From sequence record PZ379182.1: DNA of 46,134 nucleotides; one strand, 5' to 3'. The position numbers and the translations under genes are program-made. This DNA is from a phage. Below the pieces are notes generated by a model. The model made no database searches. It was not told the origin of the DNA and saw only the letters and a list, made by a program, of their open reading frames with translations. The stretch's first letter is position 1. Each line of letters begins with the position of its first letter. Below are positions 4,659-45,634 of this stretch, one piece after another.

Positions 4659-4679
4659 TTTCTTTCTCTCTTTGTGTGT

Positions 4680-4742
4680 TTCGTTTCGATGAGTTGATAA
4701 TACACCAACTCACCAATTCGTCTTTAGCAATTCGTGCTATTT
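4680..4742 (-). promoter_or_regulatory. intergenic cassette copy
   Basis: Minus strand AAATAGCACGAATTGCTAAAG ... TATTATCAACTCATCGAAACGAAAC then RBS. Confidence 0.6.
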
Positions 4743-5006
4743 TCTTATCATCTCTGCGAATGCCGCAAGAAAACCCTCTCTTCCATAAGCCACCGCTGCG
4801 AAACCGCCTGATTCCCTTACGCTTTTTAGGAATGACTTTTGCTCATTGCTAACTGGGCTTGCTTGCGTTTTACCAGCCCTCTTTAACTCTATGGCGCCAA
4901 ATGGATAACCGCCACGCAATGACTCAGGTATCAGAAATAAGCAGTCTGACACACCTTTGAGAAGCCCCTTGGCTTGGTCTTTCCTTGCTTGGCCAATGCT
5001 CTTCAT
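4737..5006 (-). CDS. VRR-NUC domain nuclease (PD-(D/E)xK fold)
   Basis: Track ORF 4737..5036 begins at a TTG; first ATG at about 5006; IPESLRGGYPFGAIELK resembles the VRR-NUC core. Confidence 0.6.
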   Translation of the reverse strand: MKSIGQARKDQAKGLLKGVSDCLFLIPESLRGGYPFGAIELKRAGKTQASPVSNEQKSFLKSVRESGGFAAVAYGREGFLAAFAEMIRK

Positions 5007-5159
5007 TGATTCATTAACTCGTGTGCCAATAGACAATCTGAGGGTAATTGATACTTAACCCAGTCAGAGCAAAATATTTGTTCGTCATCTTCCTTTGGGC
5101 ATGACTTTACAGGGCCGCCGTAGAACTCGAGGTAATCAATTTTGTCTGTAATTTTCATG
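4998..5159 (-). CDS. hypothetical small Cys-containing protein (about 53 aa)
   Basis: ORF read by eye (MKITDKIDYLEFYGGPVKSCPKEDDEQIFCSDW...); below track cut-off; coordinates approximate. Confidence 0.25.
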
Positions 5160-5393
5160 TTAATCCTCCATCGTGAATGATTTGTTGGCGATAATGTCTT
5201 GAGACTTCTGGTTTTTACGGTGTGTGATTCTCAATGGGGCACGGAATAGATGTGCATTTGTCATAATCATTCTAGCATTACGCAATCTGCCAATTCTGAA
5301 TGCCTCAGTCCTGTTCTCGATGTGTGTTGAGCAGAAACGCCTTCCATTTAACAGAGCAAACGCGATGGTCTGATTCAGGGAAGAATGTTTCAT
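5160..5393 (-). CDS. hypothetical basic protein
   Basis: 77-aa ORF; start overlaps helicase stop; Arg-rich, could be spurious. Confidence 0.3.
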   Translation of the reverse strand: MKHSSLNQTIAFALLNGRRFCSTHIENRTEAFRIGRLRNARMIMTNAHLFRAPLRITHRKNQKSQDIIANKSFTMED

Positions 5394-7159
5394 AAGCTCG
5401 GAATCTTATCTCCACTATGAGCCATAACCTCATATGAAGCAACAATCCCTGACTGGTTCTTTGTTAACCCAATCTTGAAGTCATAAACTCGCAACCAGTC
5501 CCCCTTACGATACATTTTTCCTGATAACTTAGCATTCGGGTCTATGAGCATCTCACCACAGCATCTGCAATTCTTAGCTGCAATATCATTCTTCTCACCG
5601 CATCCTTTCTTAATGATAGCTTTGGTCTGTGGGTCCGCTATATCTTCACACAGTCTAAACTGAAAGAAGTGCTCACAGCGCTTCCAGTCAATTACGTTAT
5701 TGCAGCGCCTGGCTAATGGAGAGTTCACATAAGAGCATACCTGACAGATTCTTGGCTCATCACCACGCTTTCTTGCTGACCTAAATTTCTGGTCTTGTAC
5801 CTCTTCTATAATTGGGTCGAAGTAAAGTTCAGCCATATCATCAAGCGTTCCAGCAAAATCAAGAACAACATGGTCATCTTTTACCATTCCAGCTTCTTTG
5901 TGCTTCTTCTTAAGGATACGCATACCACGACCAAGCAACTGAATGAGTAGAGTAATGCTACCAACCTTCCTCAGGATAATGCTTGTATCCCACGGGGGGC
6001 AGTTTACGCCAGTTGTGAGGCAACCAATCTGAAATATGAACTTATATTCTCCGTTGGCTGCTTTCTCAAGTATCTCCCTACGCTTTTTCTCACCTGTAGA
6101 GTCAGTAACTATGGCCCAAGTAACACCTTTAGGTAGCGCGCTCAGCCGCTTCAATCACAATGCTGTTTTCCAGCGCAAGTTACCAATGCAGCATTCCTTG
6201 TTTCCATAAACTTAGCAGCAAATCCCATTATCTTTTGTGTCATCGTTTGGTTTTCGTGAATCTTTGCAGCCATCGCATCCATTTCTTTCTTGCTGAAGTC
6301 CTTAACCCCATCACTTCCATCAGGAGTGAACTCACTAAGGTCGTAGCCCAAATCACCAACTTCACCGTAGACAGTAGGAACAACGAACCCCAAGTCAACA
6401 AGGTAGCTGGTTGGCACTTGCATTACAGTTTTGCGCCAGAATCCACGGACATTTGGGTTACTAACTACAATGTGGTCGTTGTTACGGTACGGGCTACCAG
6501 TTAACCCAAAGATACGAAGTTCGCGACCGTACTTCTCCTTGCATCGACGCTTCATTTCGGTAATGATTAACGTGTATTGCGCGCGACCAGTGCCAAGCAA
6601 GCCCGGTATTCACACCATCCTTAAAGACCATCTCACCCTTCTTCGTGCTCATCTGCTCGAATGTTTCCTCATTCTCTTCAGCTTCTACGATATCCATATG
6701 GTCAACCATATGACATTCATCTATCGCAATAACGGCAGGAACATAGTCACCAAGGCCCTTAAACAAGCCGTTAGCAGCTGTGCCCTCACTAGCCACTATG
6801 GTTGGGTAGTAAACTGATTTAACGTTAAGGCCAGCGCAATAGACGCTATTACGGATGCCGAAGTTACGAAGCTCTTCTGAGTTCTGGCTGATTATCTCTG
6901 ACTGGCGAGAAAGAACCATATAAGGAAGCCCAAGCTGCTCCATGCGCTTACCAATCATAGCAAGAATAATTGTCTTACCCGCAGACACCGAGAGGTCTGC
7001 GATAAATGGGGCCTCGTACTTTCCAATAGCCTTTCCGATTGCATCAAATGTCACGCACTGGAACTCGTAAGGTGTTATCTCTCCAAACTGATAATCTTTC
7101 TGAATCTGTTTAATTCTTTCTTTATCGAAATTTGCAACCAGCTTCTCGATAGGCAACAT
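5390..7159 (-). CDS. superfamily-2 DNA helicase (DEAD/DEAH-box type); reading frame interrupted twice
   Basis: Track ORFs 6494..7159 (motif I SVSAGKT, motif II DECH), 6151..6600 (LTGSPYR, motif IV-like ALVTCAGKQH) and 5390..6154 (motif V TTGVNCP, motif VI QLLGRGMR) are consecutive parts of one helicase in different frames; the two downstream track ORFs begin at TTG right after stops in their own frame. Confidence 0.7.
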
Positions 7160-7260: not shown

Positions 7261-7743
7261 ATGAGCGCAATTGACAAGCGAACCATTAACGGTAACAACG
7301 GAACAGTCCGCACCGAAGACAAAAAGCAACGGAAACGACCTTCAGGTTACTACGTTTTAAAAGATGAAGTAAGAGCCGGACTACGCGCACGGCTTGAGAT
7401 GATCCTTGATTTCTTCGGCACAAAGGCAAATATCGCAAAGCAGTTAAAGGTGACACCTCAGGCTGTAGAAGAATGGTTTAAGCGTGGGATGATTTCTGCG
7501 CGTGGCGCTCAGTTGTCGCACAACTACTATAAGCGAAATGGAGAAGGTTTTCGCGCTACATTCTGCCGACCAGATCTGCAATTCGACGGTAACGGGAAAC
7601 CGCTAACTCTACGTTGCAAGAAGCGTCATATGCTGCGTGTTGTTACTGAGGCTGAGCTAGCAACTAAACCAGAGTGTCGCTCATGGCGCAAGATTAAGGC
7701 CGCTAACGAAGCAGCACGAAAAGATAAAGAGCAAGGGAAATAG
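7261..7743 (+). CDS. helix-turn-helix DNA-binding protein (Cro/YdaS-like putative transcriptional regulator)
   Basis: 160 aa; segment TKANIAKQLKVTPQAVEEWFKRG typical of a Cro/CI-type HTH. Confidence 0.6.
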   Translation: MSAIDKRTINGNNGTVRTEDKKQRKRPSGYYVLKDEVRAGLRARLEMILDFFGTKANIAKQLKVTPQAVEEWFKRGMISARGAQLSHNYYKRNGEGFRATFCRPDLQFDGNGKPLTLRCKKRHMLRVVTEAELATKPECRSWRKIKAANEAARKDKEQGK

Positions 7744-7808
7744 CACGAATTGATAAACAGTGGCGCTATACATTGTGTATAGTGCCTTTATTGTTTATGG
7801 AGGTAACT

Positions 7809-8735
7809 ATGAGTCACCATGATAAGAGCGAAGTGATAGCAAAAATGAAGGGAATGTGGGGCGAATTCTACTCATCGAACCTTGGATGGACAAAGGAGAA
7901 TCTCAGCAAGAAACATGGTCCGTGCCCTTACTGCTTTGGCAGGGATAGGTTTCGCTTCACTGATGAGTTAGGTCAGGAAAAGGGAAATGGCGCAGCAATA
8001 TGCAACCAGTGCGGAAATGATTCTGGTGTTGGCTGGGTTATGAAATGCTCGGGAATGAGTTATAGCGAAACAATAGATACGCTTGGTGATTGGCTGAATC
8101 TCGTTCCAGTAGAGGTTATATCAAAAGCAAACAAAAGAGCATCTCGTACATCACCATACAAAATTGGCGCCAAGATTGATCACGAAAGATGCTTAGAGAT
8201 AATGGAAAGGACGGAAAGAGTAGAATTAACTCCGCTCAGTACATACGAGGGTATCTATAGCGAATTTGGTTTTGATGTTGGCAGGACGAAATCAGGCGAA
8301 CTAATACACGCAGTACCGTGCTTTATGGCTTATAGTGACGGCATATCAGATGATATGTGCAATGTAATGTTTATCAATGAAGATGGAGATGTTAGCTATG
8401 CTGCAAAAGATTATACTCGCCAGTCTGTTTCTATTATTGGCACCTTTAAAGATGATGAGTACGCTTATCTGGTCGATAATTGGATTGATGGTGTTCGCGT
8501 TCATCTTGCTACTGGAAATCGCTGCGTGCTTGTTTGCCACTCCAGCTACAACATGGAAATGGTTGCTTATGCGCTTAGGAACTACAAGTTACGCGTCGCT
8601 TGTACTCGCAACTCTTTTGATTTACTTGCCGTTGCTGACGATCGCAATCTTGATATTGTAATTCCAAATGATGGTAATTTTTTCAAGTCAGGCATAAGAA
8701 AGAGAATATACAAGGCAAACGAATTACTAGACTAA
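7809..8735 (+). CDS. DNA primase (zinc-ribbon plus Toprim-like domain)
   Basis: Track ORF 7773..8735; ATG at 7809 preceded by GGAGG; zinc-binding CPYCFGRDRF...CNQCG followed by primase-like core. Confidence 0.7.
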   Translation: MSHHDKSEVIAKMKGMWGEFYSSNLGWTKENLSKKHGPCPYCFGRDRFRFTDELGQEKGNGAAICNQCGNDSGVGWVMKCSGMSYSETIDTLGDWLNLVPVEVISKANKRASRTSPYKIGAKIDHERCLEIMERTERVELTPLSTYEGIYSEFGFDVGRTKSGELIHAVPCFMAYSDGISDDMCNVMFINEDGDVSYAAKDYTRQSVSIIGTFKDDEYAYLVDNWIDGVRVHLATGNRCVLVCHSSYNMEMVAYALRNYKLRVACTRNSFDLLAVADDRNLDIVIPNDGNFFKSGIRKRIYKANELLD

Positions 8736-8822: not shown

Positions 8823-11351
8823 ATGGCAATTTATGACTTAGGAACAGCGTCGCTAGCCGCAAATGGCGAGGTTACTGGCGTCGGGACAACATGGAAAGCA
8901 CCACTTACACTTATTCGTGTAGGTGCAACCATTATTTTTAAAACCAGTCCACTTAAAATTTATACCATCTCTGAAATCATCAGCGACACTCAGATTAATG
9001 TTTACAACCCTAATTCTGAAACTGTTCCTGCCGGAACTGGTTACGCGATTCTTGCTCACGATGGCATTACCGTTCAGGGTTTAGCTCAGGATGTTGCTGA
9101 GACTCTGCGTTACTATCAGTCAAAGGAGACTTCTATTGAAAGTTTGCTGCAATTTATCGGGCAAGATAATTTCGATTGGCCTCGCTTCGAGCAATTAGCA
9201 AACCAATCAGTAACAGGGGCTGCCGAGTCTTTAGCTAGCCAGATTGCTGCCGCAGAGAGCGCCGCTACTGCCGTTAGCGCAAGGGATACAACCACATCAG
9301 CGAGAGATGCTACTATTGAGGCAATTAATAGTGCTGGTGATGCTGGCACAATGGTAACTCTTGCCAATATGGGTATCGGTGGCTCGCTTACACCTCAGTT
9401 GACAGAACTTGACTGGAATACGTTTGATTTCAAATCAGGAGCTAGATACCTATGCCAAAAGTCAGCAATGATCAACGCTCCAGAGGTGATAAATATAACC
9501 TACTCCGATAGCACGCTTTGTGCGATTGAGGTTAAGTCAGCAAGGGGGATTACTGGTGTTAAGAACATACAAGTGTCAGCATCAACCGGATCCGATAATA
9601 CGTACAGGTTGATTGATTTAACTCAGACTGGCACGGCACCAAACAAAACTTACTATTCAAGAGAGGCTCTTTATGTCGCATCAGGAAGTCAGGTTGGCGG
9701 CGCTAGCGCCCAGCGAGTAAGAGGCTTGCTTGATGTTTACTCAAAAAATGAGACTTTTCAAAAATCATTGAATTTATCTGATGTTGCAGATAAAGCAAAA
9801 GCAAGAACCAACCTTGATGTTTACTCAAAGAGCGAATTATCATCAATTTTAAATACAGATTCAAAAAGCACATCAAGCTATAGCGGCTCAATATCTTCAG
9901 CAATAGAAGCCGCTGGCGATGGCGGGTCGGTAGTTATAAGCCCGGGAACTTATGAGAGTAATAACTACTCCTTTGCTGGCAGGAACATATCAGGCTCTGG
10001 ATATAATACCGTAATAAGTGTTAAACCTTTTGAAACCGGACTCACCTCAACGCTATCGGTTCCGCACTGGAGGCAAAAGCATTTATCGGATTTGCAGTTT
10101 ACAGGTACTGCAATACAAGGTAATAACGGCTTTCAATTCCCGGATGACCCTTATGCTGGAAGGGTTGTATTGGATAGGCTTTACTTCAATGACCTGGATG
10201 TTGGTATAAGGAAAAATGCTGGCAACATTGGAAATACCTACAGAAACGTAAGTATTAGAAATGCGAATTACGGGTATCGAGCAAAAGCTCATGACGAAAT
10301 GCATATAGGAGCGGACACTTTATACGGATACCACTCAGATACAATCTCTCAATATTCAGTAATGCTAGATGCGACAAGCACAAGTAGCGCAACGAACCCT
10401 GGCGCTGGAGGAATTGGTGGGTGGTGGATTAGGGATTCAATAATGGAGGCCTCTGCTGGCGGCGGTATAAGGTTAAAGAATAAACCTGGAGATTGCCCAA
10501 CATCACCTTGCGGATTGTCTAACGTATGGTTTGAAGCGATAGCAACTGGTGGGGCAATTAACGTAGGTGAGGGAGCTGAACTCCCAAGGGTTTTGAAGCT
10601 CATCGATACGTCCGTTTTCTTTGCTGAGCATTCTTATATTAATAACATTGAGTTATCAAATTCAAACCTTGTAACTTATGGGTGCAGGTTTGATAACGCT
10701 GATGGGCACCAAAGTTTCTCTCTTGATTCGAACAGTATTATTTTTGCTAAGGATGCATACCTGAATGGCTCTTCAACATCAAACGTTATAGTTGAGTCAC
10801 TGGTATCACAGACAGCCAAGATAACGGGTACATCTGACTTATCTGTTAGAGGATATGTTACTAAAGGTCGAGTTTTTAACCCTGATTCCGGAACTGTTTT
10901 AGTAAGGAGGCCTTTTGGTACTGGTGGGAACAACTTTGGTGGAACAGGGTCGGCAAGTGAAGGTTCTGATACAAGGGGTATACACTCGCAATCATCTGGA
11001 TACTACGAATTGGCTGGTGCGGCTCAGTACGAATTGATAAATGGTGGCTTTAATATAACTTCCGGCAAATGGTATGCTTGGGGTATTTCTGCAAACAGGA
11101 TTCAAGGCGGTGCTGATGGTATTATAAACATTTTTGGTAGCGCATCATTAGGAACTGTATTCACAGAAGCTGGTAAGTGGGTTCATACATTTGGCGTTGG
11201 TAAGGCTTCGGTTTCTGGCGTTGCAAACCTTAACATTAACCTCAATGGATTAACTGGTATGGTATTAAGCCTTGCTGATTATTTTGTTGTAGAATTTGAT
11301 AATCAAAGGGACGCCTTGATATTTGCAAACTCAAGAGTTTCTCTTGCATAA
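8823..11351 (+). CDS. tail fiber / tailspike protein with candidate enzymatic central domain
   Basis: Track ORF 8793..11351; ATG at 8823 (MAIYDLGTASLAANGEVTG...); Gly/Ser/Thr/Asn-rich repetitive beta-type sequence typical of fibers; enzymatic domain is inferred, not shown. Confidence 0.65.
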   Translation: MAIYDLGTASLAANGEVTGVGTTWKAPLTLIRVGATIIFKTSPLKIYTISEIISDTQINVYNPNSETVPAGTGYAILAHDGITVQGLAQDVAETLRYYQSKETSIESLLQFIGQDNFDWPRFEQLANQSVTGAAESLASQIAAAESAATAVSARDTTTSARDATIEAINSAGDAGTMVTLANMGIGGSLTPQLTELDWNTFDFKSGARYLCQKSAMINAPEVINITYSDSTLCAIEVKSARGITGVKNIQVSASTGSDNTYRLIDLTQTGTAPNKTYYSREALYVASGSQVGGASAQRVRGLLDVYSKNETFQKSLNLSDVADKAKARTNLDVYSKSELSSILNTDSKSTSSYSGSISSAIEAAGDGGSVVISPGTYESNNYSFAGRNISGSGYNTVISVKPFETGLTSTLSVPHWRQKHLSDLQFTGTAIQGNNGFQFPDDPYAGRVVLDRLYFNDLDVGIRKNAGNIGNTYRNVSIRNANYGYRAKAHDEMHIGADTLYGYHSDTISQYSVMLDATSTSSATNPGAGGIGGWWIRDSIMEASAGGGIRLKNKPGDCPTSPCGLSNVWFEAIATGGAINVGEGAELPRVLKLIDTSVFFAEHSYINNIELSNSNLVTYGCRFDNADGHQSFSLDSNSIIFAKDAYLNGSSTSNVIVESLVSQTAKITGTSDLSVRGYVTKGRVFNPDSGTVLVRRPFGTGGNNFGGTGSASEGSDTRGIHSQSSGYYELAGAAQYELINGGFNITSGKWYAWGISANRIQGGADGIINIFGSASLGTVFTEAGKWVHTFGVGKASVSGVANLNINLNGLTGMVLSLADYFVVEFDNQRDALIFANSRVSLA

Positions 11352-11381: not shown

Positions 11382-11837
11382 TCAGAATGGAATATCTCCG
11401 TCGAATGTGTTTTGCTGTTGTTGTTGTTGTTGTTGCTGTTGATGTTGTTGTTGCTGTTGATGTTGCGGTTGATGGCGCTGTTGTTGCTCTGTATTTTTAT
11501 GTTGCTGTGCACCCTCACCACGCTGACTAAACTCAAGACGAGGATTGTTCATGTTAATTGTTATGTAAGTCTTGCCATCTTTATCTCGAACATCTAATGC
11601 TAACGTCTCACAACTTACGCTAACAATCTTCCCTTCCTGAAACGCTTCGTTATACCATGTAAGCATTGATTCCTTTGCGAAGAAGACGGCACGATAGTTG
11701 CTATACTGAGATTGACCATCTTTATCCTTGTAACGCTCACTTAAATCAACCGCGTACATCTTCCAACTGCCATTTGCATTCTGACCTTCTTTAGTGAACG
11801 GAGCGCGACGGATAACACCAGTGATTACATGACTCAT
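11382..11837 (-). CDS. ssb: single-stranded DNA-binding protein with glutamine-rich linker
   Basis: 151 aa; OB-fold-like N-terminus, C-terminal acidic tail DGDIPF, poly-Q/H linker. Confidence 0.85.
   Translation of the reverse strand: MSHVITGVIRRAPFTKEGQNANGSWKMYAVDLSERYKDKDGQSQYSNYRAVFFAKESMLTWYNEAFQEGKIVSVSCETLALDVRDKDGKTYITINMNNPRLEFSQRGEGAQQHKNTEQQQRHQPQHQQQQQHQQQQQQQQQQNTFDGDIPF
11412..11495. repeat. CAG/CAA trinucleotide repeat tract encoding the SSB poly-glutamine linker
   Basis: Plus strand reads (TTG/CTG)n continuously over about 80 nt. Confidence 0.8.
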
Positions 11838-12528: not shown

Positions 12529-12539
12529 TAACTATCTCT

Positions 12540-12606
12540 CTTTCGTTTCAGTGGGGAAATCATACCTCACCTTTTGATTTTGTCTTTAGCAATTAGTGCT
12601 ATTTTA
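12540..12606 (-). promoter_or_regulatory. intergenic cassette copy between exonuclease and ERF genes
   Basis: Minus strand AAATAGCACTAATTGCTAAAG ... CCCCACTGAAACGAAAGAGAG; motif contains the exonuclease stop codon. Confidence 0.6.
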
Positions 12607-13570
12607 GAAGTTCTTGATACTGCTTACTTACCCACTCAGGAATCATCAAATCTTGCTCTGTAATCCCATTGCTATACCCAGGCCATACATCAAGCTCCTT
12701 GCACTGTTTGTATGTTGCTAGTGCCTCACAATATTGTAAACGACCAATGCGAAGCTGTTCATCTGTAAGCGTGTAGCTCATTGGTAAGTAAGGCTCCGTT
12801 TTTTCCTGCGCCAGAAGTCGAGCCACAACCTTACGCTTCTCGTTAAATGTCTTCACGAACAAGTCACGCTGAAGGCTCATTTTGCACAGGTATCCATGGT
12901 CATAAGCTGACTTGCCAAATCCTCTCGGGCTTGCGTCCGCCGTCGTCTTGTAGTCAGTAATGAAAACCACGCCATCAACAACATCCACGTGATCAAGCCT
13001 AACCTTAACACCACACCCAAGAATCTCACCAAAGATTGATAGCTCTTTCTGTGCTGTTGGTGAGTTAATAATCGCATCGTAAGCTGGGATATTAGTCAGA
13101 ACCTCGCGCATTGAGATTACCTTATCGTAATCTTTCGCAGTAACGAGCTCTTTGCCACTAATTAACGCCTCAGCGCTCTCCTGCTGCTCAATTAACCATT
13201 TAACAGGCCAATCCTCACCAGATTTATACATCATCTCCACGAGCTCGCTATATCCCTTACCTGACGTGCCTGAAACTCCAACTTTTTTAAGCGCTGCGGA
13301 TAAAGCCGTTTGGCTAGTAATCAATCCTTCCACTTCGTCAAAGTCAGTAGCTCGCATGTATGTTGAGTCAAATACCTCGCGCTCTAGCATCATGCAGTGA
13401 CTTAGTGTGCCAAATTTAAGTGCTGCGCTAGAGTTGCTGCGCTGCTTAAATTTCCATTTTGCTGGAGAAGTAGCAAGAATCTCAGCCAGCGAAGAGCCAG
13501 AGATATGGTCTTTCTCTTCGTGATAGGCTTCATTGGTTAGCTCGTCGTTCGTATAAACTTTAAATGTCAT
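12599..13570 (-). CDS. recombination exonuclease (PD-(D/E)xK, RecE/YqaJ-like)
   Basis: 323 aa; D...D/E..K-type motif region (VRLDHVDVVDGVVFITDYKT); synteny with ERF and SSB. Confidence 0.6.
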   Translation of the reverse strand: MTFKVYTNDELTNEAYHEEKDHISGSSLAEILATSPAKWKFKQRSNSSAALKFGTLSHCMMLEREVFDSTYMRATDFDEVEGLITSQTALSAALKKVGVSGTSGKGYSELVEMMYKSGEDWPVKWLIEQQESAEALISGKELVTAKDYDKVISMREVLTNIPAYDAIINSPTAQKELSIFGEILGCGVKVRLDHVDVVDGVVFITDYKTTADASPRGFGKSAYDHGYLCKMSLQRDLFVKTFNEKRKVVARLLAQEKTEPYLPMSYTLTDEQLRIGRLQYCEALATYKQCKELDVWPGYSNGITEQDLMIPEWVSKQYQELLK

Positions 13571-13768: not shown

Positions 13769-13900
13769 TTCTCTATCTCTCTATTGTTGTTTGCTTTCGA
13801 TGCGTTAATGATGCCGCACGCAAGACACACAGTCCAATTGGTATCACCGATTAATTAATCAAGTATACGCGTATAAATCCGTAACTATGTGTAGACATTG

Positions 13901-14155
13901 CCATTAGTTACGTTTTTCACCACTTCAGCCCAGCTATAGCTCAATGTAAATAGTGCGTATACCGTGTATACCGATTTTTGCGGAGGGTGCATAGTTATAT
14001 GCGCCACGCAATACTGTATAAAATCACATTATATAAAAATTATAACCGGAACACTCCAGAACAGTAGTTACATGATATACACAGTAATATATATAATAAT
14101 AATAATAAGAGTAAATGGTTGATATATATAGATATTATTATGTAACTATGGCGTA
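13901..14155. repeat. AT-rich regulatory/origin-like module, copy 1 (palindrome, (ATA/TAA)n microsatellite, 30-bp conserved core)
   Basis: GTTACGTTTTTCACC...CAGCCCAGCTATAGCT at 13901-13941, (ATA)n at 14086-14108, core GGTTGATATATATAGATATTATTATGTAAC at 14117-14146; the same blocks recur at 41546-41785. Confidence 0.7.
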
Positions 14156-14309
14156 TCAAAGCGTAACTAGGCGTATACGATTTCCCGCTGATGCATATGG
14201 TATACATAGAGTTACATCGGTTACGCGTAACCAACAGCACGAATAGCTAAAACTAATCCGCAAAACCATGTATAGTTGGTCACACAAAAAAACGAGAGAG
14301 GATTTCAAA

Positions 14310-14999: not shown

Positions 15000-15060
15000 A
15001 GACAAATCTCAAGGATGAGATATCATTACTCCATTGAAACGAAACACACCTTCTAAGGAA
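14982..15060 (+). promoter_or_regulatory. intergenic cassette copy between methyltransferase and cor-like genes
   Basis: AAATAGCACCAATTGCTAAAG, ATCTCAAGGATGAGAT hairpin, TATCATTACTCCATTGAAACGAAAC. Confidence 0.6.
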
Positions 15061-37129: not shown

Positions 37130-37205
37130 TGGTGTTCCGCACTGGACTCGAACCAGTAACTAAGACTTAGGAGGTCTTTGCGTTATCCTGTTACGCCAGC
37201 AGAAC
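37130..37205 (-). tRNA. tRNA-Arg (anticodon CCU, reads AGG)
   Basis: 76 nt folded by eye: acceptor GTTCTGC/GCGGAAC (one G-U), D-arm GCGT/ACGC, anticodon stem AAGAC/GTCTT with loop CUCCUAA, T-arm ACTGG-TTCGAGT-CCAGT, encoded CCA. Confidence 0.8.
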
Positions 37206-40744: not shown

Positions 40745-40821
40745 TTCCTTTGTGCCTCTCGTTTCGATGAGATAATTATGCCATCCATGGCATTATATGC
40801 GTTAGGCAAAAAGTGCTATTT
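40745..40821 (-). promoter_or_regulatory. intergenic cassette copy
   Basis: Minus strand AAATAGCACTTTTTGCCTAA, TGCCATGGATGGCA hairpin, CATAATTATCTCATCGAAACGAGAGG. Confidence 0.55.
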
Positions 40822-41448: not shown

Positions 41449-41545
41449 ATTCGTTACTCCTGATTGGTTGCTCTTCGTTAAGATGAAACCATGGTATCAT
41501 GAATATACGCGTTATCAAGTGTTATGTTGTGTTTATATCTGCATT

Positions 41546-41785
41546 GGTTACGCTTTTTGACCTCTCAGCCCAGCTATAGCTGGTGTAATTACCCTGTGTA
41601 AGATTTTACGCGGATTCGCCGGGGGTATGCATATGTATCTATATAGATAAAATTAGTAGTTTTCATAGAAAAACTATCGACCCATCCATACGACCAATCT
41701 ACACCATATACATACATATATATAATAATAATAATAATATAGTAAAAGGTTGATATATATAGATATTATTATGTAACCATTGCGT
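41546..41785. repeat. AT-rich regulatory/origin-like module, copy 2
   Basis: GTTACGCTTTTTGACC, perfect 14-bp palindrome CCAGCTATAGCTGG at 41570-41583, (ATA/TAA)n at 41715-41740, core GGTTGATATATATAGATATTATTATGTAAC at 41748-41777. Confidence 0.7.
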
Positions 41786-42295
41786 AATCTAGCGTGGTAG
41801 GCGTGTATGATTCTTCGGAAGCGCACCTCATATACACACCATAACTTCGATAACGTGTATATCCAAATTGGCTCAGCAAGAATCAAAATCAACTTGTATG
41901 GTAGTCCATCCACCATTCATTCACCCCACATCGATCATTGCAAATTCTGCAACAATCAAAAACATCATTGCATTCGATGCAATATTGCTATATGTGCAAT
42001 AATGAGATGAATCATTGCAATAGCTGCAACAATCTATAAATCCAACGAATAGCACTTTTTGCTAATGCACAATCATTAGTAAGTTGCTACTATGTATTCA
42101 TCGAAACGGTGCTGGACTCTGAGTCACTTCCGAAAGGAACCAAAAGAGTGAACGACACCGCGCAATGTGAGGAAGCGTTACCTTACCCACCAAAGCGCCT
42201 TGCGGGTCCTTTTGATAGGATGCCGGGCCGGGTTTAAAATCCCGAGTTGTAGTGAGTACGTTGAAGAGATTTCGATAACAAGAAAACATAGAGAG

Positions 42296-42466
42296 ATGAC
42301 AGTGATGACAGAAAAAACAGTTGGTTACAGTTACAGTAATGGTCATTGGGTTGTTGAGTTAAAAGGGTTTCACAAGTACCCAAAATTAAGTTTCTTCATG
42401 ACAGAAGATGATGCAAAGTCTTGGGTTCAGGTTCTTAAAGAAAGGTGGTTTAAAAATGAAACTTAA
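42296..42466 (+). CDS. hypothetical protein (first rightward early gene)
   Basis: Track ORF 42167..42466; first ATG at about 42296 after a long leader. Confidence 0.4.
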   Translation: MTVMTEKTVGYSYSNGHWVVELKGFHKYPKLSFFMTEDDAKSWVQVLKERWFKNET

Positions 42467-43213: not shown

Positions 43214-43270
43214 AACTCACCGCCACGGATGGCGTATATTTACTCCATCGAAACGAAAGAGAGCAAGAGA
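43193..43270 (+). promoter_or_regulatory. intergenic cassette copy
   Basis: AAAATAGCACTAATTGCTAAAA, CGCCACGGATGGCG hairpin, TATATTTACTCCATCGAAACGAAAGAGAG. Confidence 0.6.
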
Positions 43271-43990: not shown

Positions 43991-44050
43991 TAATGCATTA
44001 TAAGCGGCTATTGATATAATGGCCGCTCAGAAACAATGCGGAGAGAAGTA

Positions 44051-45634
44051 ATGTTTGATTTCAATGAAGATAAACTATCTGTTGAGCAAGTTATGGCGAT
44101 CGCTGCCAATGACAACCTACCACCGCTTCGCGTGGCTATTAATGCCAATGGCTATCGACAGTCTCAATCGTTCTGGAAAGCACCTGTCGAGATTGATACA
44201 GGTAATGATAAGTATCCAGTAATCTCACTCGGTAATGATATTGATGTTGTTGGTAAGCTATCGGCTAATATCGCTCGCTCGGTTCAGTTCCCTGAGTCGT
44301 CAGCTTACATGCACTTTCTTGGTTGTGTTTCTGCTGCAATGCTTGGGCGTTTTACTGTCGAGTATCATGGAACCCAACAGCCAACATCTTTGTACGTGGT
44401 AACAAGTCAGCCGCCTTCAACTGGTAAATCAGCCATTAACTCGCTATCAATTGCGCCGATGATTGCTGAGACTGAGCGGTTGAATGAAGTACGTAAACGT
44501 GATCGAAAAAAGATTATGGCTAAACTGTCCGCTCTGGCTAAAGAGATGAAGCAGGAGAAATCACCTTCTGAAATGGCTTCACTTTTTGAGGAGAAGGAGG
44601 ATTTAGAGGAGAAGCTCGAGAAGCTATGCGATATAGTATTCCCTGTCTCCGATACTACTCCGGAAGGTCTTGCGCGAATCAACAATCGCCAGGGTAATTT
44701 TGCGGTAATCTCTGATGAGGCTACTAGCGTCAACTCACTGTTAGGCATGACTTACGGTGATGGCTCGAAGAAAACGAACAGCGAGCTCGTGCTGAAAGCA
44801 TGGGATGCAGGTAATGTGTCAATTGCCCGTGCGAACGCAGAAAATAACATGAGCTTTGTGGCTATGGGATGCATCTCCGTAATTGCTCAGGATGAAACAA
44901 TCAATGCCATTATGAATGCTGGTGCGCGTGGTATTGGTGTATCTGAGCGTTTCCTTCTGGTGCGTGAAAAATCATTTCTTGGCGACCGTGTATTTGTTGA
45001 TGAAAATGGTGATTCAACCTATGAGGCTATTGATGGCGGCCTGAAAGCAGACTATTTCCGTCTTGTTCATGAGATTATGAATGAAGTTGAAGTGAAACTT
45101 ACTGTAAGCGCGTCATCAATGCGTTACCTTAACCGCGCTCGTCAAGAGATGGAGCCTCATCTTGGTGATGGTGGCAAGTATTCTCACACAATGTTGCGCG
45201 GTGCTCTTGGTAAGTTTGATAAGCAAGCAATCCGCATCGCTTCTGTTCTGCACGTAATTCGTAACTGGTTCTCACCAGCCGGATCCAGCCCTCAAAAGTC
45301 AAGAGAGATTGAACTGGATACAATGCAGGAAGCGGTTATGATTTTCAACGAACTAAGCAAGACTTATTTATCATCCGCTAGTGCTGCTGGTCATGCTGGT
45401 GACAATGCCGAGATGAACAAGCTGGTTGATATCCTGATTAAGCAGGGCAAGAATGGTAAAGGTGTTGTTGGTGTTCGCTCGTTGTATGAGGCTGCACGCA
45501 AGGTTAAACCTTTTGAAGCTCAGGCTGGAATTATGACTCGCATTAAGGACCACTTGATTCCTATGCTTGATGAGAAAAACTACACATGCCTGATTGGTGA
45601 TAAAATTTACATTAATCCACGATTGCTGGGGTAA
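44051..45634 (+). CDS. P-loop NTPase (Walker A/B), possible replication ATPase/helicase
   Basis: Track ORF 44036..45634; ATG at 44051 follows GGAGAG; Walker A-like SQPPSTGKSA and Walker B-like FAVISDE. Confidence 0.55.
   Translation: MFDFNEDKLSVEQVMAIAANDNLPPLRVAINANGYRQSQSFWKAPVEIDTGNDKYPVISLGNDIDVVGKLSANIARSVQFPESSAYMHFLGCVSAAMLGRFTVEYHGTQQPTSLYVVTSQPPSTGKSAINSLSIAPMIAETERLNEVRKRDRKKIMAKLSALAKEMKQEKSPSEMASLFEEKEDLEEKLEKLCDIVFPVSDTTPEGLARINNRQGNFAVISDEATSVNSLLGMTYGDGSKKTNSELVLKAWDAGNVSIARANAENNMSFVAMGCISVIAQDETINAIMNAGARGIGVSERFLLVREKSFLGDRVFVDENGDSTYEAIDGGLKADYFRLVHEIMNEVEVKLTVSASSMRYLNRARQEMEPHLGDGGKYSHTMLRGALGKFDKQAIRIASVLHVIRNWFSPAGSSPQKSREIELDTMQEAVMIFNELSKTYLSSASAAGHAGDNAEMNKLVDILIKQGKNGKGVVGVRSLYEAARKVKPFEAQAGIMTRIKDHLIPMLDEKNYTCLIGDKIYINPRLLG

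Follow-up and report, generated by a model that had tools for sequence, protein, structure and literature searches.

The window analysed here, a 46,134-nucleotide stretch of phage DNA (sequence record PZ379182.1), is the genome of an Rtp-like coliphage of the Drexlerviridae. It carries a non-coding module of about 370 bp twice, at 13864-14232 (copy A) and 41505-41862 (copy B), with the same block order and the same orientation. We consider it probable that the two modules are replication origins, combining SaPI-type iterons with an unwinding element and duplicated like oriL and oriR of SPP1, or else that they are one firing origin and a second initiator-binding site. This reading is favoured because the module centres are the least stable DNA, the repeats around them are lineage-specific iterons, and the design is linked to an MCM-like winged-helix helicase. 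Two papers on this group state that its replication origins have not been located (PMC11447400, PMC7718038); an earlier description of the module in the Rtp or T1 genome papers is possible.

Anatomy and duplex stability of the two modules

The original prediction described an AT-rich module of about 250 bp present once in each of two large intergenic regions. BLASTN and alignment confirmed that ordered blocks are common to both regions, which match over 116 bp at 82% identity (E 5e-27) and 41 bp at 88% (E 2e-8). Region A had no BLASTN match in the rest of the window besides region B. The two copies are thus real, but 250 bp is too short for their true extent, the limits lying at approximately the coordinates given above. 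Copy A, in the intergenic region on the recE side, is rich in iterons and was aligned with copy B and the modules of 15 relatives; copy B, in the early/pac-side region, keeps the block order of A with fewer consensus iterons. The copies are 27,631 bp apart, in line with the predicted 27.6 kb. As had also been claimed, neither contains a credible ORF: the frames of 50-80 aa found on scanning are broken by stops or not kept in relatives.

Copy A ends in two ACGCGT-containing palindromes, TATACGCGTATA on the left (13864-13875, two CGTATA half-sites back to back) and GGTTACGCGTAACC on the right (14219-14232). The element GTTACG(T/C)TTTT starts at 13907 in A and 41547 in B, and the conserved block CAGCCCAGCTATAGCT lies at 13926-13941 and 41566-41581, respectively. 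Palindromes of 14 bp in copy B and 12 bp in copy A had been proposed here. The first is present (CCAGCTATAGCTGG at 41570-41583, within CAGCCCAGCTATAGCTGG at 41566-41583), but that of copy A, AGCTATAGCT at 13932-13941, measures only 10 bp, the next base being C. The distance from palindrome to core is similar in the two copies, 175 nt in A and 164 nt in B, against the 170 nt or so expected. The core itself, GGTTGATATATATAGATATTATTATGTAAC, consists of exactly 30 identical bases at 14117-14146 and 41748-41777, as originally reported. It belongs to an AT-rich centre, a candidate DNA-unwinding element, at 14069-14148 in A and 41696-41775 in B. Each centre also includes TATAAT (14092-14097 and 41721-41726) and the predicted microsatellite, as (ATA)5 at 14093-14108 and (ATA)6 at 41722-41739.

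The repeats of the window are degenerate variants of YGTAAC, YGTATAC and ACGCGT. In copy A, two minus-strand repeats lie left of the centre; right of it come four plus-strand repeats (TGTAAC, GCGTATC, GCGTAAC and GCGTATAC; 14141-14178) and then four on the minus strand (14173-14232), the last being the right boundary palindrome. GCGTA recurs every 10 bp, with starts at 14151, 14161 and 14171, and tandem plus-strand iterons GCGTATACC and GTGTATACC occupy 13955-13972. Copy B has a similar layout, but through degenerate repeats only (TGTAAC, GCGTAAT, GCGTG and GCGTGTAT, plus strand, 41772-41810, spaced by 9-10 bp). Strict matches to the iteron consensus number 14 in copy A versus 2 in copy B, and this scarcity in B speaks against the origin reading. 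So does the degeneracy of the repeats in the window, since it could mean more than one binding protein.

We calculated duplex stability as nearest-neighbour energy over 80-bp stretches of whole genomes and, in the window, over 40-bp stretches as well. The two module centres were the two least stable stretches in all seven genomes (the window, T145P1, TH30, T1, K7, TLS and Jk06), with z of 4.5-6.3 overall and 4.6-6.3 at 80 bp, while the third-ranked stretch reached about 3.3-3.7. At 80 bp in the window, the centre of copy B was the least stable (z 5.5) and that of copy A second (z 5.2); they held the first two ranks at both 40 and 80 bp (z 4.5-5.5). The equivalent centre was also the least stable stretch in six of seven loci from metagenomic phages.

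Other screens of the window returned little. Rfam and ARAGORN detected a tRNA-Arg only and left the intergenic regions empty, and the RNA fold of the long leader at 42095-42300 was not unusually stable (z -0.89). Resemblances to LexA and DnaA boxes seen by eye in copy A were rejected: each mismatches at least two key positions, and copy B does not have them. GC skew follows gene orientation and is uninformative.

Conservation, lineage-specific iterons and a candidate initiator

A search of related T1-like genomes, suggested in the original prediction, covered complete Drexlerviridae genomes from the Braunvirinae, TH30, Jk06, T1, TLS and the Klebsiella Webervirus K7. Each contains two modules, one directly upstream of the recE-erf-ssb operon and one in the early/pac intergenic region; T1, TLS, Jk06 and K7 have related modules at the same two map positions. 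The modules had been placed between diverging operons, which is true of Rtp-like phages and T1, but in TLS and Webervirus the recE-side module is flanked by co-oriented genes. Conservation of the core among relatives is narrower than the 30 bp identical in the window. Its first 20 nt (GGTTGATATATATAGATATT) are near-invariant in both copies across Braunvirinae and TH30 (at most one change), and each complete Braunvirinae or TH30 genome fetched has exactly two occurrences of this sequence, oriented alike. Identity over the full 30 bp is peculiar to the window phage, whose A copy has a B-type 3' half.

The words repeated around the centre vary with lineage: YGTAAC/CGTATAC in the window, TGTAACA in T1, GGTAAGAT in Webervirus, GTGAACA and TGGAACA in TLS. 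They are concentrated in the modules, which hold 4/4 genome copies of ATGTAAC and 5/6 of ACGCGTA in the window, all six of TGTAACA in T1, and 13 of the 18 of GTAAGAT in K7 (p 1e-18). In most cases the innermost repeats on the two sides of the centre have opposite orientations, as in K7, copy A of T1 and TLS. Most of these phages share one host and the repeats are nevertheless lineage-specific, which points to a reader encoded by the phage.

The original prediction held that none of the annotated genes explains the module. This was too strong, as the DUF3987 helicase (44036-45634, plus strand) is a plausible binding partner and our favoured putative iteron binder. The protein matches Pfam DUF3987, and its AF2 model (pLDDT 88) is that of an MCM-like, hexameric-type AAA+ helicase with a C-terminal winged-helix-like domain (approximately residues 455-531, topology H-E-H-H-E-E). 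DUF3987 proteins have been described as superfamily 6 replicative helicases with a C-terminal wHTH (PMC4889955). Neither the helicase nor the Cro-like HTH protein of the window (7261-7743, plus strand), an alternative candidate binder, gave a significant match in sequence searches against the PDB.

Among phages with the iterons of the window, the helicase is 85-100% identical, whereas primase, ERF, RecE, SNF2 and TerS fall to 39-66%. This wider identity table ruled out the latter five as partners of the module, and an ST7-like protein was ruled out as well. A covariation over three genomes (window, T1 and K7) could not tell helicase and HTH protein apart. Within the helicase, conservation is lowest in the C-terminal domain, and the C-terminal motif RNLKIFKG occurs together with GTAAG iterons both in K7 and in the distant locus L032. 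From the RNLKIFKG motif of another locus, L033, we predicted its iterons beforehand, and they were indeed GGTAAGAT. The covariation between iterons and C-terminal domain draws on a small number of independent lineages, whose iterons all resemble one another in pattern.

A similar design is seen further afield. In other, metagenomic phages, a least-stable AT-rich centre and iterons private to the phage occupy the intergenic region that precedes the operon of the DUF3987 helicase; in the four distant ones, L032, L034, L035 and L036, one small ORF only lies between module and helicase. The iterons are TTGTACGC in L030, GGTAACA in L031, TGTAAG in L032, GGGCATA in L034 (6/6), CGTGGGCG in L035 (7/7) and TGGGGT in L036 (11/11). 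Only a module of the copy B type was seen in these distant phages: L032 and L034-L036 have no module before recE. In L034, the module is also about 1.2 kb from a terminase-side gene cluster. A RecE-based search of viral contigs found no related loci.

These observations suggest how initiation might proceed. The MCM-like helicase would recognize the iterons through its C-terminal winged-helix domain, assemble on both sides of the AT-rich centre and then melt the centre, which would serve as the DNA-unwinding element. Self-loading of the helicase onto the melted region would follow, before the phage primase and host DNA polymerase III take over. In the lineage of the window, an IHF site beside the centre may help to bend the DNA.

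Alternative readings of the module

Of the three options in the original prediction, a pair of origins is the one we favour, a shared operator set is the main rival and sites for a host factor fit less well. In the operator reading, which we regard as rather unlikely, the module would control early transcription, its centre holding one or two sigma-70 promoters, made up of TATAAT and AT-rich DNA upstream of it, and its repeats being operators through which a phage regulator switches both sites. The Cro-like HTH protein, a homologue of T1 ST23 (Pfam P22_Cro E 4e-6, below the family cut-off), would be such a regulator, and boundary palindromes would suit a dimeric protein of this kind. It is as well co-conserved with the module type as the helicase is in close relatives, being 84-94% identical among phages sharing that type while the neighbouring primase falls to 46-53% in TH30 and Jk06. 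Early and recombination operons start at both modules, and in Rtp-like phages and T1 diverge from them. The perfect TATAAT at the microsatellite edge is kept in most lineages and most modules, a promoter-like trait that also counts against the origin reading. Moderate promoter-like matches occur in both centres (TCTACA-17-TATAAT in B, TTTACT-18-TATATT in A), and the predicted leftward promoter of copy B has ACGCGT in its spacer.

However, none of the promoter-like pairs is conserved in position or quality across lineages. When spacings of 16-18 bp were tested, TATAAT was conserved but its -35 partners were weak and differed by lineage, and counts from sigma-70 scans showed no excess over shuffled sequence (5 vs 3.8 and 4 vs 3.7). 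Stronger promoter candidates lie outside the module. Promoter-like sequences for the flanking genes are found beside it, at the 21-nt-repeat sites at 14234 and 42049; another, TTGATA-16-TGnTACCAT, is at 41518-41491, and T1 and TLS have a near-consensus TTGACT-16-TATAAT beside recE. The position of the recE-side module in TLS and K7, not between divergent genes, does not fit either. Moreover, the DNA fetched for distant phages of the same design (L032 and L034-L036) showed no ST23-like HTH gene, not even at the syntenic primase/SNF2 junction of L034 and L036; its absence is provisional, as these loci are partial. Finally, the operator reading leaves unexplained that the two modules hold the two least stable stretches of every genome. 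We found no transcriptome of any T1-like phage.

It is very unlikely that the module is an architectural site at which host nucleoid proteins (IHF, possibly H-NS or Fis) bend or organize the incoming DNA with no phage-specific binder. AT-rich DNA with many TpA steps is a typical H-NS target. Perfect matches to the IHF consensus WATCAANNNNTTR form putative minus-strand sites in both copies, TATCAACCATTTA at 14112-14124 in A and TATCAACCTTTTA at 41743-41755 in B; these are two of the four matches in the window, they lie in the cores, and an AT-rich tract adjoins them on the 5' side as in classical IHF sites. T145P1 has the same arrangement, and TH30 a match in its A copy only. However, four matches in the window compare with 3.05 expected by chance. 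The modules of Jk06, T1, TLS and K7 lack the consensus, so that its restriction to Braunvirinae and TH30 rules out IHF as a general feature of the module, and lineage-specific flanking repeats are not what a mostly shared host would lead one to expect.

Least probable of all is a packaging or recombination site, such as an accessory part of pac or a hot spot for concatemers, even though about 200-250 bp separate copy B from base 1 as set in the records of T1 and Rtp (in T1, base 1 is the start of the 2.8-kb terminal repeat), recE-erf-ssb always follows copy A directly, and pac of P1 likewise has arrays of short repeats around an IHF site. The base-1 positions fall in a separate repeat block at 41930-42040 (ATCATTGC/TGCAACAATC), which only copy B has beside it. 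Two pac sites would mean two packaging series, and T1-like phages show one (PMC11447400); pac is a single site where the terminal repeat begins, and a module in two copies is unlike it. Nor does TerS vary together with the module type, and it is with the helicase operon that the module is associated in distant phages.

Relation to known origins and significance

The closest parallel to the proposed origins is found in SaPIs, the Staphylococcus aureus pathogenicity islands. Their origins have an AT-rich centre surrounded by 6-12 iterons, to which a self-loading Rep helicase binds through its winged helix (PMC9371898). The modules share with these origins the AT-rich centre, short (5-8 bp) iterons pointing opposite ways on its two sides, and variation of the iterons between related elements. 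The presumed reader is likewise an AAA+ helicase of the hexameric kind whose C-terminus forms a winged helix, and that of SaPIbov1, Rep2, also belongs to superfamily 6 (MCM-like), although phmmer detected no similarity between the helicase of the window and those of SaPIs. Unlike these satellites, the window is a virulent coliphage with two modules per genome, 27.6 kb apart. Its modules are longer (about 370 bp) and have more types of block, including the 20-nt invariant core and the IHF consensus. SaPI origins directly follow rep, whereas in the window neither module adjoins the helicase gene: copy B lies 2.2 kb upstream of it, with small ORFs between, and copy A about 16 kb away. This distance is a further point against the origin reading.

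The duplication recalls the Bacillus phage SPP1, another virulent pac-type siphovirus, whose two similar origins are separated by about 13 kb (PMC6316719). Like the modules of the window, the two sites are many kilobases apart and combine direct repeats with an AT-rich stretch, in SPP1 an unwinding element; one is intergenic, and both are bound by one phage initiator, as would be the modules. The second has been proposed to stall forks and so switch replication to concatemer synthesis with an exonuclease, an annealase and SSB (PMC6316719), and copy A, directly upstream of recE-erf-ssb, parallels this oriR. In SPP1, however, the initiator gp38 is separate and needs two partners, the loader gp39 and the DnaB-type helicase gp40, whereas the helicase of the window is MCM-like; we recognized no gp38-type origin binder, loader or DnaB-type helicase among the ORFs of the window that were scanned. 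SPP1 oriL also differs in lying inside gene 38, and the sequences are unrelated.

The satellite phage P4 offers a third comparison. Its ori and crr are separated cis sites with the same short iterons, bound by the C-terminal domain of the alpha primase-helicase. The window would resemble it in having two separated sites with the same short iterons read by the C-terminal domain of a replicative helicase. According to the T1 record, the T1 primase is similar to P4-type alpha proteins. Alpha, however, is a fused primase and SF3 helicase, whereas the window has a separate primase and a separate MCM-like helicase; and crr is not itself an origin. The TLS repeat TGTTCAC resembles the P4 iteron TGTTCACC.

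A 21-nt intergenic repeat of T1-like phages, aaATAGCACnnnTTGnTAAAA (German et al. 2024, PMC11447400), is, like the module, a conserved non-coding repeat of Drexlerviridae, and one copy lies to the right of each module (14234-14251 and 42049-42066). It differs from the module in being family-wide rather than lineage-specific, and neither AT-rich nor prone to melting.

A more ambitious reading joins these elements, and we put it forward as a speculation that we would not expect to hold in full. Copy B would be the ancestral firing origin and copy A a high-affinity helicase site, acting as a second origin or as a fork-staller that starts recombination-dependent concatemers, the latter being the role suggested for oriR in SPP1. 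All phages that encode a DUF3987 helicase would then have a private iteron/AT-rich origin read by the C-terminal winged helix. If so, self-loading MCM-like initiators would be found beyond staphylococcal islands, in a large group of virulent phages whose origins would be predictable from sequence.

T1 is a classic T phage, and Drexlerviridae are common contaminants of laboratories and fermentations as well as candidates for phage therapy. For this family, our analysis provides two precise origin candidates per genome and singles out the MCM-like helicase as a candidate initiator. A simple recipe for other phages with DUF3987 helicases follows from it, namely to seek the stretch of lowest stability that has private short repeats on its flanks. 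The self-loading MCM-like mechanism has so far been worked out for staphylococcal islands only. Confirmation of the origin reading would raise the question of why two copies are kept, and would place MCM-like self-loading initiator-helicases at the iteron origins of bacterial viruses.

Conservation of a duplicated module

The window, 46,134 bp long, covers all or nearly all of the genome of an Rtp-like coliphage (Drexlerviridae, Braunvirinae). Its closest record, phage ES, is 91–98% identical across the two intergenic regions that the original prediction had described as carrying the same ordered blocks. BLASTN alignment of these regions bore this out (116 bp at 82%, E 5e-27; 41 bp at 88%, E 2e-8) and revealed no match to region A within the window other than region B. 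In both copies CAGCCCAGCTATAGCT, GTTACG(Y)TTTT and the (ATA)n tracts occur in the same order, and a 30-bp core is indeed identical at 14117–14146 and 41748–41777. The palindrome of the first copy, given as 12 bp, is actually 10 bp, and the span first noted was too short: the module runs from 13864 to 14232 on the recE side (copy A, with TATACGCGTATA and GGTTACGCGTAACC at its edges) and from 41505 to 41862 on the early-gene side (copy B). As predicted, it holds no credible ORF, those of 50–80 aa within the modules not being conserved.

To the left of region A lie a 64-aa ORF and the genes of a RecE-like PDDEXK nuclease (12599–13570) and an ERF annealase; to its right are a C5-methylase-like gene and those of a Cor-type lipoprotein and a DUF6453 protein. 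Region B is followed by small ORFs and then a DUF3987 helicase gene (44036–45634), and on its left by DUF7174 and then small early genes in a row up to the terminase genes. A Cro-like HTH protein (7261–7743) and a primase (7773–8735) are also encoded. The SNF2-type helicase, a single 672-aa gene in T1 (ST22), is represented at 5390–7159 (minus strand) by three overlapping ORFs (6494–7159, 6151–6600 and 5390–6154), which could have arisen through frameshifts or sequencing errors, unless the gene is truly split. A (CAA/CAG)n tract at 11400–11508 (minus strand) encodes a glutamine-rich stretch within ORF 11382–11837, whose 151-aa protein sits downstream of ERF, where relatives have their SSB gene. 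A tRNA-Arg with anticodon CCU lies at 37130–37205 (minus strand), as reported for other T1-like phages.

A search of T1-like relatives recovered modules at both map positions. The 20-nt core GGTTGATATATATAGATATT is present exactly twice, in the same orientation, in each complete Braunvirinae and TH30 genome fetched (T145P1, 12397V, Msk, A110b, TH30 and ES), once in the recE-side and once in the early-side region; the partial Rtp and EC3a loci also contain it. An alignment of 17 sequences came out as a mosaic in which variable spacers lie between short conserved blocks. The A and B cores of relatives diverge in their 3' third, and the unusual 30-bp identity in the window arises because its A copy carries the B-type version. 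At 14137–14142 this copy reads ATTATTATGTAAC, while all other A copies compared (relatives' loci L005 to L010, ES included) read ATTTTAATGTAAC; two substitutions would account for this, as would gene conversion between the copies.

Two related modules occupy the same two positions in T1 (Tunavirinae), TLS (Tempevirinae), Jk06 (Rogunavirinae) and a Klebsiella Webervirus. Within each genome the two resemble one another (T1, E 3e-10; Webervirus K7, 130 bp at 83%, E 3e-35; TLS, E 7e-6; Jk06, 68 bp at 82%). The divergent gene arrangement initially noted holds in the window but not as a general rule: the recE-side module of TLS and the Webervirus is flanked by genes on the same strand, so the element is not tied to divergent transcription. 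The paired module is clearly conserved and functional.

Unstable centres and lineage-private repeats

When 80-bp stretches were ranked by nearest-neighbour energy in the window, T145P1, TH30, T1, K7, TLS and Jk06, the module centres were the first and second least stable genome-wide (z 4.6–6.3; third-best stretch about 3.3–3.7). The sole near-universal sequence among modules is a (TA)n/TATAAT(AAT)n run. Short repeats crowd the flanks; they cluster in the modules and differ from lineage to lineage. Those of the window are YGTAAC, YGTATAC and ACGCGTA, and its two modules hold 4/4 genome copies of ATGTAAC and 5/6 of ACGCGTA. The corresponding fractions are 6/6 for TGTAACA in T1, 13/18 for GTAAGAT in K7 (repeat GGTAAGAT; p 1e-18), 4/8 and 4/11 for GTGAACA and TGGAACA in TLS, and 8/16 for GCGTAT in Jk06. 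Jk06 also gave four module matches to ACGCGTA versus three genome-wide, the sampled segment wrapping the record ends. Centre-proximal repeats are inverted about the AT-rich centre, and GCGTA starts at 14151, 14161 and 14171, a phasing of ~10 bp. In TLS, whose modules lie at about 241 and 28845, the iterons TGTTCAC(G) are similar to the type I iteron, TGTTCACC, of satellite phage P4; this may be coincidence.

Copy A is much richer in consensus repeats than copy B in four lineages. Strict consensus iterons number 14 versus 2 in the window, 11 versus 3 in both T145P1 and K7, and 13 versus 0 in Jk06, an imbalance that hints at different roles or affinities for the copies.

Seven metagenomic phage loci (L030–L036) were fetched via homologues of the helicase. 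Upstream of the helicase operon these have private repeats around an AT-rich centre, and in six of them no other stretch is as unstable. That intergenic region holds 3/3 copies in the locus of TTGTACGC (L030), 5/9 of GGTAACA (L031), 9/21 of TGTAAG (L032), 4/5 of GTAAGAT (L033, repeat GGTAAGAT), 6/6 of GGGCATA and 4/4 of GTGGGCA (L034), 7/7 of CGTGGGCG (L035) and 11/11 of TGGGGT (L036). In the distant phages L032, L034, L035 and L036 (modules at 9203–9759, 4983–5782, 78–632 and 68–632) only one small ORF, overlapping the helicase start, separates module and helicase, and a module in front of recE is absent. The microsatellite of L032 is (AAC)n in place of (ATA)n.

Candidate readers of the repeats

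The repeats are lineage-specific though the phages mostly share one host, which points to a phage protein as their reader. Among phages with the window's repeats, the helicase is 85–100% identical and the Cro-like HTH protein 84–94%. Primase, ERF, RecE, SNF2 and TerS drop to 39–66% in some of these phages and were excluded on that ground; the ST7-like protein, which is conserved and whose gene lies directly upstream of that for the helicase, was excluded since it does not covary with the repeats.

DUF3987 proteins have been described as MCM-related replicative helicases of superfamily 6 that carry a winged helix at the C-terminus (PMC4889955), and helicase activity has been demonstrated for one member (PMC11724360). 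The AlphaFold model of the window's helicase (pLDDT 88, pTM 0.86) has a C-terminal helix-strand-helix-helix-strand-strand unit. Comparison of this fold gave values of 15.6 for MCM proteins, 9.1 for SCCmec Cch, 8.0 for SaPI5 PriRep, 7.6 for SaPIbov1 Rep and 8–9 for ORC/Cdc6 winged helices (short matches). Conservation across the protein is lowest in its C-terminal 80–100 residues. The Webervirus and the distant L032 share the C-terminal motif RNLKIFKG as well as GTAAG repeats; L033 has the motif too, and GGTAAGAT repeats, predicted there beforehand, were then found. Covering few independent lineages, these comparisons favour the winged helix of the helicase as the probable reader. Within Drexlerviridae the Cro-like HTH protein is a possible alternative. 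A gene resembling ST23, the T1 HTH gene, was not found in the fetched DNA of L032 and L034–L036, syntenic primase/SNF2 junction included. The 69-aa ORF of L035 has the look of a small HTH protein, and origin binding in that lineage could alternatively fall to it.

Candidate replication origins and rival readings

Of the options raised originally, we favour a pair of replication origins, with odds slightly better than even: each module would combine iterons with an unwinding element, and the phage's MCM-like helicase would read the iterons. This reading draws on sequence and structural-model evidence. In SaPI origins a central AT-rich region is surrounded by six to twelve iterons, each a penta- or hexanucleotide, which run in opposite directions on its two sides and are read by the C-terminal winged helix of the self-loading Rep helicase, which in SaPIbov1 belongs to superfamily 6 (PMC9371898). 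The module agrees with this design. Its duplication agrees with oriL and oriR of SPP1, which are alike in organisation (direct repeats together with an unwinding element that is AT-rich), lie about 13 kb apart and both bind the phage initiator; for the second site it has been proposed that forks stall there and set off concatemer synthesis, in which the exonuclease, annealase and SSB of the phage take part (PMC6316719). There are differences, however. SaPI have one copy rather than two, SPP1 differs from the MCM-like helicase without a separate initiator proposed here, and our module is longer, has more block types and lies farther from the helicase gene than in these systems. The SaPI-defining placement of the origin next to the initiator gene is seen in the distant loci but not in the window.

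The main rival, an early promoter/operator complex for the Cro-like regulator, seems unlikely. Simple and weighted sigma-70 scans found only moderate matches in the module centre, in counts not above shuffles and with no pair conserved across lineages. Better promoter candidates adjoin the module: a 21-nt T1-like repeat at 14234 and 42049, an extended -10 promoter-like site at 41518–41491 and, read from the T1 and TLS sequences, a near-consensus TTGACT-16-TATAAT adjoining recE. The 21-nt repeat, ATAGCACnnnTTGnTAAA, is known from T1-like phages, its function unassigned in the literature (PMC11447400). The window has 16 copies versus 0.56 expected (1292, 2379, 4723, 7231, 7740, 8782, 12585, 14234, 14983, 26488, 34367, 40290, 40802, 42049, 43197 and 43977), nearly always intergenic and sharing the strand of whichever gene lies next downstream. 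It holds the inverted repeat TAGCA-N5-TGCTA, with a -10-like hexamer 21–22 nt downstream; the dyad would thus lie near -41, as in a class II activator site. Between 21-nt repeats and start codons stands a conserved leader, ..TATTATC..CATCGAAACGAAAC.. (4670–4743, 12532–12605, 13781–13812, 15021–15049, 40748–40779 and 43230–43270). It is repeated on both strands (repeat families D10, D12, I1, I2, I7 and I8) and might be a 5' UTR or translation signal used in common.

Host-factor, packaging and recombination readings are less likely. The host-factor option gains from a perfect IHF consensus on the minus strand of both cores (two of the window's four matches), and IHF may assist in this lineage; the match is, however, missing from the Jk06, T1, TLS and K7 modules, so IHF cannot be the common function. 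Against packaging, base 1 of the T1 record, the start of an annotated 2.8-kb terminal repeat, and base 1 of Rtp, which maps near it (to about 41989 in the window), both fall in the counterpart of a region B-only block apart from the shared module (41930–42040; ATCATTGC three times, TGCAACAATC twice), and TerS shows no covariation with module type. This block is the better candidate for a pac or small-terminase binding site.

The proposed origin mechanism is itself already familiar. In T1-like phages the origin has not been identified, according to the accessible literature (PMC11447400, PMC7718038). The candidate origins open this long-standing gap in knowledge of a classic phage to direct testing, and they suggest a general rule for phages with DUF3987 helicases.
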